The notes under the pieces: model-generated
Databases searched by the model: none
The model's input: only the letters and a program-made list of their open reading frames with translations
Told to the model about the DNA's origin: nothing
IMG/VR virus record: IMGVR_UViG_3300045988_046182
Coordinates: 1 to 40,367 of that record
From: a virus
Strand: one strand, 5' to 3'
Length of the DNA stretch: 40,367 bases
In this document: in pieces, positions 7,460 to 7,850 of the stretch
Layout of the letters: each line of letters opens with the position of its first letter
Position numbering within the stretch: the stretch's first letter is position 1
Program-made: the position numbers and the translations under genes

Positions 7460-7850
7460 TAAAAATCTAAGTTACTACATTTACTACAAAAACTACACTA
7501 ATTTCTATATAGCAAATATTTATAAAAAAATATATATATAATTTATTATTATAAATAAACTCTTGAAAATAAATGTAGTAAATGTAGTAAATATATATAA
7601 AGCTAGTGATACCAACGGTTTGAAGGGGTTACAAAAATGTAGTAAAAGTGTAGTAAAAAATGTAGTAAGCCTAAAAATGTAGTAAAACGGTTAATAATAT
7701 ATGAATGAATTTTAACAGTTTATCAATAAGTTTTATTGTTAAAAATGTAGTAAACTACAAAAATGTAACCGCAAAATGTAGTAAAAATGTAGTATTACTA
7801 CATAAAAATGTAGTAACTGAATCCGAAAATGTAGTAATTGAAAATAAAAA
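7460..7850. repeat. Iteron array A: about 12 direct and 3 inverted copies of AAAATGTAGTAA flanking an AT-only stretch
   Basis: Repeats readable at 7471-7497 (inverted), 7573-7590, 7636-7690 and 7743-7840. Spacing is 10-16 bp. The whole ~330-bp block is paralogous to 23510-23850. Confidence 0.85.

Follow-up and report, generated by a model that had tools for sequence, protein, structure and literature searches.

The window analysed here, a viral DNA of 40,367 nucleotides (nt) (IMG/VR record IMGVR_UViG_3300045988_046182, positions 1 to 40,367), is 93–97% identical to the phiCP39-O/phiCP26F group of Clostridium perfringens siphophages, whose matching members include phiCP13O, phiCP34O, phiCP9O, CPD1, CPQ4, PMQ04 and HMD-PC1, among others. 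It carries two paralogous blocks of a short repeated unit, arrays A and B, which lie 16 kilobases (kb) apart, and a gene for a VapE-like protein (hereafter referred to as Rep) directly beside array A. Here we report that both blocks are probably Rep-binding platforms built like the Rep/ori-type replication origins of staphylococcal pathogenicity islands (SaPIs), a reading that draws on sequence comparison and on analogy with known replicons. The anatomy of the arrays, the homology of Rep to the SaPI1 initiator, the linkage of such arrays to VapE-like genes in unrelated elements and the co-variation of arrays with Rep among closer relatives carry this reading.

SaPI Reps are self-loading initiator-helicases whose C-terminal winged helix binds penta- or hexanucleotide iterons, and the SaPI ori, which lies immediately downstream of rep, contains 6–12 iterons; on either side of its A+T-rich centre there are two or more of them, which point in opposite directions (PMC9371898). 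A second point of reference is Bacillus phage SPP1, in which two origins ~13 kb apart have the same organization, consisting of direct repeats and an A+T-rich DNA-unwinding element (DUE), and are both bound by gp38; one of them, oriR, lies with morons 8–10 in a segment that is bracketed by transcription signals and interrupts the late genes (PMC6316719). Forks have been proposed to stall at gp38-bound oriR, where a resolvase, an exonuclease, an annealase and SSB (a protein that binds single-stranded DNA) turn theta replication into concatemer synthesis (PMC6316719).

Anatomy of the two arrays

All long open reading frames (ORFs) of the window lie on its minus strand, and the features of the arrays are therefore to be read on that strand. 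The exact sequence ATGTAGTAA occurs 21 times in the window, 11 times within positions 7472–7837 (array A) and 10 times within 23518–23839 (array B), and nowhere else, against an expectation of 0.90 ± 0.95 and a maximum of 4 in 100 dinucleotide-preserving shuffles. Counted by the 7-mer core TGTAGTA/TACTACA, array A contains 14 units and array B 12, and these numbers rise to 16 and 14 if one mismatch is allowed. The two blocks share 84% column identity in a MAFFT alignment and ~80% identity over 340 base pairs (bp) by blastn, in good agreement with a first-pass annotation of the window, which had described two paralogous arrays about 16 kb apart and about 85% identical.

On the coding strand, each block runs from an intrinsic terminator through direct TTACTACAT units, an A+T-rich centre and three inverted units to a promoter. 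In array A, the upstream border is an intrinsic terminator with a nine-pair stem and a T-run that closes the rep unit (7851–7872, minus strand). The distal cluster (7745–7837) comprises six direct units on the plus strand (7746, 7777, 7788, 7809 and 7830, with their neighbours) and two inverted ones (7753 and 7796), and is followed by a middle cluster (7637–7685) of four direct units spaced by 11, 12 and 17 bp and by a proximal pair of direct units (7573–7590) with 9-bp spacing beside the A+T-rich centre. The centre (7497–7572), the proposed DUE, contains CTATATAG at 7505–7512 and is bordered on its other side by three inverted units with 9-bp spacing (7472–7497), the third of which is degenerate. 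The promoter (7383–7411, minus strand) has the sigma-A-type consensus TTGACA-17-TGcTATAAT and fires away from the array; a second promoter (7275–7304) lies ahead of the scaffold operon. Array B has the corresponding parts: a terminator paralogous to that of array A (23846–23868, minus strand), a distal cluster (23781–23839) with four direct units plus a degenerate inverted one, a middle cluster of four direct units with the same 11-, 12- and 17-bp spacing (23683–23731), a proximal pair of direct units (23619–23636), an A+T-rich centre (23543–23618) with CTATATAG at 23551–23558, three units in the opposite orientation (23518–23543) and a promoter of the form TTGACA-16-TGcTATAAT (23384–23411, minus strand), which likewise fires away from the array, into the Gp157-ERF-ERCC4-ThyX-SSB-XRE-primase operon.

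The finer geometry departs from the initial description, which gave three sub-clusters of direct units at 10–16-bp spacing and a pure A/T stretch of ~60 bp. The direct units fall into four sub-clusters with centre-to-centre spacings of 9, 11, 12, 17, 21 and 24 bp, one or two units of the distal cluster are inverted, and the A+T-rich centre, which harbours the palindrome CTATATAG, is 76 bp long with an A+T content of 90.8% in both arrays. The first nine units are spaced identically in arrays A and B (9, 9, 83, 9, 55, 11, 12 and 17 bp), and the sequences of their spacers have diverged. In both arrays, the centre is flanked by three inverted units on one side and two direct units on the other. 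Among all 70-bp duplex windows of the 40 kb, those at the two centres are the least stable (−63.5 kcal/mol for B and −65.2 kcal/mol for A), about four standard deviations below the mean duplex stability of −83.0 ± 4.7 kcal/mol. The genes downstream of array A (62 amino acids) and array B (73 amino acids) are not paralogues, indicating that the duplication spans only the segment from the terminator to the inverted units.

Both arrays are found in all the phiCP39-O/phiCP26F-group relatives examined, with 97–99% conservation for array B and 93–97% for array A. In alignments of 8 (array A) and 7 (array B) distinct sequences of the family, from which one 21-bp deletion was excluded, none of the 175 unit-core columns varies, compared with 53 of the 807 other columns; as judged from these alignments, purifying selection acts on the units. 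The family also includes two kinds of structural variant. In phiCP13O and phiCP34O (L051 and L053; ~4324–4345), a clean 21-bp deletion corresponds to exactly one distal unit of array A. In phiCP9O (L004, JF767210; 8451–9368), array A is tandemly duplicated to 27 units, giving three arrays in this genome, and this duplication may be real or an assembly artefact.

Each array further contains one copy of an auxiliary 14-mer box, CTAGTGATACCAAC, which occurs exactly twice in the window, at equivalent positions and in opposite orientations (7603–7616, plus strand, in array A; 23650–23663, minus strand, in array B). The box was also considered as a DnaA box and rejected, as its by-eye match to TTATCCACA covers at most 5 of 9 positions.

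Rep and its association with arrays

The rep gene (7876–9159, minus strand) encodes a 427-residue VapE-like SF3 initiator-helicase, the proposed iteron binder, and the first unit of array A ends at 7837, 39 bp after the rep stop codon at 7876. Rep matches the Pfam VapE-like_dom family (PF05272, E = 7e-41), and its only sequence match in the PDB is 7PDS_A (phmmer, E = 7e-11), from the cryo-electron microscopy structure of SaPI1 Rep on DNA. An AlphaFold2 model of Rep, built on 58 homologues, has a mean pLDDT of 86.8. In a Foldseek search with this model, the six best matches were chains of 7PDS, aligned over the full length (E ~1e-16 to 3e-17, TM 0.64–0.70, ~450 columns), and further matches were the SF3 primase-helicases NrS-1, poxvirus D5/E5, African swine fever virus PrimPol and SaPI5 PriRep5. 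By sequence and predicted fold, Rep is a homologue of SaPI1 Rep. At its C terminus, residues 373–420 of the model form a strand-helix-helix-strand-strand arrangement (pLDDT ~85–92), and the region around these residues is a predicted winged helix and the predicted reader of the iterons. Within the family, Rep is 100% identical between phiCP39-O and phiCP13O, as compared with 93–96% for the surrounding DNA.

Arrays of the same unit also lie beside distantly related VapE genes. Pairs or triplets of the unit were sought in public contigs, both viral and genome ones, and, among the matches listed, only those with at least six units per 500 bp were kept. At loci L117, L099, L042, L128, L185/L217, L230, L271, L237, L280, L228 and L257/L267, a TGTAGTA array, with units of both orientations set around an A+T-rich gap, directly follows on the 3′ side a VapE-like or VirE-type gene whose product is only 23–34% identical to Rep of the window. 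These elements are diverse: L117 and L099 are plasmid-like, from Acutalibacteraceae and Ruminococcus, and contain little beyond a relaxase gene and a fused primase–VapE gene; L128 is a Melioribacteraceae phage-like contig with the order primase, VapE, array; and L042 is a high-GC phage contig. Among the matches listed, an SF3-helicase match is present at 20 of the 68 array-bearing loci, which include the window's own family and near-duplicates and amount to about a dozen independent cases, and at 2 of the 211 array-free loci. Moreover, in a tblastn comparison of the window's minus-strand ORFs of at least 40 amino acids with 11 distant array loci, only the VapE-like protein gave matches adjoining the arrays; Gp157 and the minor head protein gave matches away from the arrays in three of the 11.

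The association also appears from the side of the gene. A search with Rep as a single protein returned only the window's own phage family, and 54 VapE genes were sampled from viral contigs by a profile search with a four-sequence alignment. Some 7-mer is repeated at least six times in the 700 bp 3′ of 11 of these 54 genes, in the 700 bp 5′ of none and inside two, and the repeated 7-mers on the 3′ side are often of a similar type (TGTAACA, TGCTACA, AGTAACA and GTAGTCA). In one of the distant loci (L271, 5080–5800), two tandem paralogous arrays lie 3′ of VapE with different units, TCTACAC and TACTACAC, and otherwise similar spacers; by sequence, these twin arrays may represent an intermediate in a change of iteron specificity. 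In a Lachnospiraceae metagenome-assembled genome (L059, 1520–2220), TGTAGTAAATGTAGCAA units are interleaved with DnaA-box-like TTATCCACA clusters, 3′ of a gene fragment for a D5/P4-type helicase.

A protein search identified 171 Rep homologues, many of them 40–66% identical, and the contigs of six (L367–L372) were read. One of them, L369 (Rep 65% identical), has the layout of the window and keeps the TACTACA units. In the other five (L367, L368, L370, L371 and L372; Rep 43–51% identical), the genes follow the order ERF, ERCC4 (in three), SSB, helix-turn-helix (HTH) protein, primase and Rep, and a 270–360-bp gap follows rep, which is the pri-rep-ori order of SaPIs. The gap contains an origin-like array whose unit is specific to each phage: GTTACCT in L367, TTGTACC in L368, AAGTTAC in L370, TGTAGCA in L371 and GGTAACC in L372. 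Furthermore, L367, L370, L371 and L372 have a second, paralogous array with the phage's own unit just upstream of the scaffold gene, and L371 has a third ahead of the early genes; the two arrays of L367 are 73% identical. One array was seen in L368, a contig that is readable in part only. That each genome repeats its own unit indicates that the arrays evolve in concert and track Rep, and by these comparisons the arrays of one genome co-vary with Rep. Between the two phages with a common iteron, the C-terminal domain of Rep shows 81% identity, above the 64% of the ATPase core, and it is 36–54% identical in phages with differing iterons, at or below core values of 48–60%. Despite the differing iterons, the core of the auxiliary box, TTGGTATnAC (within CCGTTGGTATCACTAG), recurs in either orientation in the arrays of L367–L371 (L368, 11482; L369, 2923; L367, 11324 and 20598; L370, 11315; L371, 11317, 11475 and 20628).

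The first-pass annotation had suggested an initiator-bound origin linked to the VirE/VapE gene, and this suggestion gains comparative support from the homology to SaPI1 Rep, the SaPI-like ori anatomy, the linkage and the co-variation.

Proposed mechanism and alternative explanations

On this basis we infer how the arrays might work. The C-terminal winged helix of Rep would recognize the TTACTACAT units, of which three on one side and two on the other would act as the opposed units flanking the 76-bp A+T-rich centre. Rep would melt the centre, load itself as a hexameric helicase and then recruit the phage primase (17872–18840) and the host polymerase. The further seven to nine units that one side carries probably support cooperative Rep binding, the upstream terminator would keep incoming RNA polymerase out of the origin complex, and the strong outward promoter may aid opening via negative supercoiling. 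Array A, which directly follows rep on the 3′ side, would be the cognate origin, and array B would be either a second origin or an SPP1 oriR-like, initiator-bound site at which forks stall and at which the ERCC4 nuclease, the ERF annealase and Gp157 would convert theta replication to concatemer-producing replication. By analogy, a second origin and an initiator-bound fork barrier are the two live options for array B, and sequence alone cannot separate them. The duplication had been read initially as two origins or as one origin with an accessory site; two origins, or one origin with an accessory initiator-binding site, fit the comparison, and a partition site finds no support in it.

Several observations weigh against an origin function of the two blocks. 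The primase gene lies 8.7 kb from rep in the window, so that the pri-rep-ori order of SaPIs is absent here, and rep adjoins array A only, array B lying away from it. As all genes share one strand, GC and AT skew show a uniform strand bias, which gives no signal of an origin. The genome paper by Oakley et al. (2011) mentions neither the repeats nor an origin, and a full-text literature search for the unit motif returned unrelated papers only, none of them on phage replication. In eight similar viral contigs (L192, L193, L219, L225, L227, L252, L255 and L262), TGTAGTA pairs and triplets begin where a gene for a Tn916-type tyrosine integrase ends, at its stop codon, and thus the unit is not exclusive to VapE replicons. 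The TGTAGTA unit accompanies Reps that are only 23–34% identical, yet relatives with 43–51% identical Reps have other units, indicating that iteron specificity does not simply follow overall Rep similarity. The 14-mer box looks like a putative site for a second, more conserved factor. Finally, the arrays of the window and of its relatives each lie just upstream of a consensus promoter at an operon start, an arrangement that makes a transcriptional role possible, perhaps alongside the origin role.

Taken further, this arrangement could mean that the units are operators of a transcription regulator, either Rep or another phage protein, that times two operons, and that the arrays have no part in replication. 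Each array is preceded by a terminator and followed by a perfect consensus promoter that opens an operon, as are the three arrays of L371 and the pre-scaffold array of L367. However, nine other perfect coding-strand promoters have no units nearby, and the nearest unit lies 61 bp (array A) or 107 bp (array B) upstream of the −35 element. The SaPI-type ori anatomy, the occurrence of TGTAGTA arrays in plasmid-like contigs with only mob and rep genes, and the change of the units with Rep also speak for replication, and we regard a purely regulatory role as improbable. About equally improbable is a scheme in which another DNA-binding protein reads the units and Rep is loaded indirectly. The candidates are the sigma-70 region 4-like protein (86 amino acids), the XRE-like protein (108 amino acids) and the 73-amino-acid product downstream of array B. 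A sigma-70 region 4-like gene lies directly upstream of one L371 array, a gene of homologous type is present in the window (30674–30934), and an HTH gene precedes the primase gene in all relatives. Yet tblastn detected none of the three candidates in the 11 distant array loci, and the plasmid-like contigs with mob and rep lack such a gene. The 73-amino-acid product, which had been put forward initially as a binder together with the sigma-70 region 4-like protein, has no Pfam match either. Moreover, in SaPIs it is Rep itself that binds the iterons, by means of its winged helix (PMC9371898), a domain that the model predicts for Rep of the window.

The lack of an integrase had also led to the idea of a phage-plasmid with centromere-like partition sites. 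The parC site of plasmid R1 consists of short direct repeats around a promoter, and the arrays resemble it. However, none of the 40 window proteins scanned contains a ParA, ParM, ParB, ParR-like or ribbon-helix-helix domain, the annotation of the relatives lists no partition genes, and a BLAST search with array A against 72,556 plasmid records, a check that the first-pass annotation had proposed for both blocks, returned no match. A missing integrase fits a virulent phage equally well, and we consider a partition role extremely unlikely. A pac site was considered and dropped, as the small terminase gene (15691–16080) lies ~8 kb from either array and two copies are present.

A more serious alternative, which is possible although we favour it less, is that only array A is an origin, and that array B and the extra arrays of the relatives are Rep sites that do not initiate and act instead as a fork barrier, as a P4 crr-like enhancer or in titration or handcuffing. 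It is array A alone that rep adjoins, ERCC4, ERF and Gp157 are encoded directly downstream of array B, and the ori and crr regions of P4 offer a precedent. The proposal that SPP1 oriR is an initiator-bound fork barrier points in the same direction (PMC6316719). Against this, array B keeps every origin feature with the same spacing, has the least stable duplex centre of the genome and is better conserved than array A (97–99% against 93–97%), and no sequence feature separates a firing from a non-firing site.

Beyond the interpretation of both blocks as SaPI-type Rep-binding platforms, a broader and rather speculative possibility is that the dispersed arrays form a conserved, Rep-dependent genome-organizing system that couples the replication state to operon timing and to the concatemer switch. 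This idea is based on each major operon being headed by one array, in every case with a terminator on one side of it and a consensus promoter on the other, on the unit sequence being kept identical across arrays as Rep drifts, and on the iteron-independent 14-mer box. If it is true, the pre-scaffold site would be a general requirement of SPP1-like phages, despite their non-homologous initiators.

If both blocks are Rep-binding platforms of the SaPI type, the phiCP39-O/phiCP26F group, members of which are studied as therapeutic candidates, gains a concrete candidate origin and initiator; in the records of the group examined, no origin or initiator is annotated. The self-loading Rep/ori design of SaPIs would extend from satellites to virulent phages and small mobilizable plasmid-like elements, with an initiator and its dispersed sites evolving in concert, and a link would be drawn between the SaPI Rep mechanism and the two-origin layout of SPP1, models that have been studied separately. 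Cloned arrays are also conceivable as phage-inhibitory decoys, a use to which a cloned copy of the origin of the Streptococcus thermophilus phage Sfi21 has reportedly been put.

Genome context and comparison with known systems

The gene order of the window was assembled from domain searches and from the annotation of relatives, and is given in the direction of transcription. Small early genes, including those for the sigma-70 region 4-like protein and an antirepressor, precede array B, and directly downstream of it follow the genes for Gp157, ERF, the ERCC4 nuclease, ThyX, SSB, the XRE-like protein and a CHC2 zinc-ribbon primase. The operon that had been taken for a generic early one is thus a recombination and replication operon. 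After the primase gene come small genes, the small and large terminase genes, and genes for a portal of the SPP1 type and a Mu F-like minor head protein, followed by an HNH gene and small genes, the VapE-like gene, array A, and the genes for the scaffold, the major capsid protein, the tail and lysis. Within the window's family, the rep gene lies inside the morphogenesis region, beside the pre-scaffold array, and not after the primase gene. The primase (17872–18840, minus strand; Pfam Zn_ribbon_DnaG), which has a C-terminal CHC2 zinc ribbon and is the likely partner of Rep, is 49% identical and orthologous to the rep-adjacent primase of L367. The 127-amino-acid ORF that follows the primase gene of the window was considered as a remnant of rep and was ruled out on comparison.

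The coding strand carries eleven perfect TTGACA-N16/17-TATAAT promoters, several with an extended TG, at 38443–38416, 30644–30617, 28097–28069, 23411–23384, 22640–22612, 20620–20592, 19373–19345, 17479–17452, 9907–9879, 9791–9764 and 7411–7383 (all on the minus strand). From these sequences, the phage appears to rely throughout on the primary sigma factor of its host. The sole perfect consensus promoter on the non-coding strand (9342–9370, plus strand) lies in the 1-kb region upstream of rep and faces a small ORF that is annotated on that strand in some relatives. At 7376–7308 and 9872–9797 (both minus strand), a consensus promoter is followed after ~65–75 nt by an intrinsic terminator. These segments could encode small RNAs with CCUCC or CUCCU motifs complementary to Shine–Dalgarno sequences, and the one at 7376–7308 is conserved in L369. 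The putative small RNAs fold no better than shuffled sequence (z ~ −1.3) and have no Rfam match, and an Rfam search of the whole window found no family.

Compared with the SaPI Rep/ori system, Rep of the window contains a homologous ATPase of the VapE-like SF3 type, matches the SaPI1 Rep fold over the full length and has a predicted C-terminal winged helix, and array A is non-coding, lies directly 3′ of rep and consists of short iterons that point both ways about an A+T-rich centre. By analogy, the self-loading helicase logic of SaPI Reps is expected here as well. The differences are that the SaPI system belongs to a satellite island and the present one to a virulent 40-kb phage; that the SaPI ori has 6–12 penta- or hexanucleotides, whereas the window has 14 and 12 units of 9–11 bp; that a second paralogous copy lies 16 kb away, with two or three copies in relatives; that the primase gene is not adjacent in the window's family; and that the arrays of the window contain a conserved 14-mer box. 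Rep is only ~15% identical in sequence to SaPI1 Rep1.

The layout of the genome recalls SPP1. Both are lytic siphoviruses with two elements of repeats and A+T-rich DNA, 13–16 kb apart, and with one initiator for both, as is proposed here for Rep. The view of the first-pass annotation that two origins would be unusual for a siphovirus is therefore overstated, as the strictly lytic SPP1 has two similarly built origins ~13 kb apart. The head modules are homologous and follow the same order: portal (of the SPP1 type), Mu F-like protein, scaffold. According to the SPP1 record, gene 6 and the minor head gene 7 are followed by genes 8–10 with oriR and by gene 11 (scaffold); array A, like oriR, lies between the Mu F-like minor head gene and the scaffold gene and is bracketed by transcription signals, and the same pre-scaffold position is occupied by an array in L367, L370, L371 and L372. 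Both phages also possess recombination genes for a theta-to-sigma switch, in the window those for ERF, ERCC4, Gp157 and SSB. By contrast, SPP1 uses the origin binder gp38, the loader gp39 and the DnaB-type helicase gp40 in place of the single SF3 initiator-helicase proposed here, and no DnaB-type helicase or loader domain was found in the 40 window proteins scanned or in the annotation of relatives. In addition, oriL of SPP1 lies inside gene 38, whereas the arrays of the window are intergenic, and the repeat sequences are unrelated.

Two further systems resemble the arrays in part. Satellite phage P4 has two iteron regions several kb apart, ori and crr, which are bound by one primase-helicase with a C-terminal origin-binding domain and are both required in cis for replication. 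This protein, P4 alpha, is a fused P4/D5-type primase-helicase, and crr differs from ori in its build and is no site of initiation. The likeness lies in the use of one helicase for two separate iteron regions, and the repeats share no homology. In Sfi21 (NC_000872), the record annotates an origin, defined by experiment, that directly follows a gene for a P-loop primase on the 3′ side. This origin is a non-coding segment of ~300 bp in which GTAAC-type units in both orientations flank an A+T-rich stretch; it differs in being present as a single copy and in belonging to a temperate phage. The Sfi21 primase has no BLASTP similarity to Rep of the window and is therefore an analogue rather than a member of the Rep family.

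Collectively, by mechanism and initiator homology, sequence and analogy place the arrays with Rep as a candidate SaPI-type Rep/ori replicon, which departs from that type only in the adjacency of the primase gene, a feature found in the closer relatives. By layout, analogy suggests an SPP1-type multi-origin phage, which departs from SPP1 in its initiator proteins. The window thus appears to present a new combination, in which a SaPI-type initiator is associated with two or three concerted arrays, one of them at the position of SPP1 oriR, and with an iteron-independent auxiliary box.

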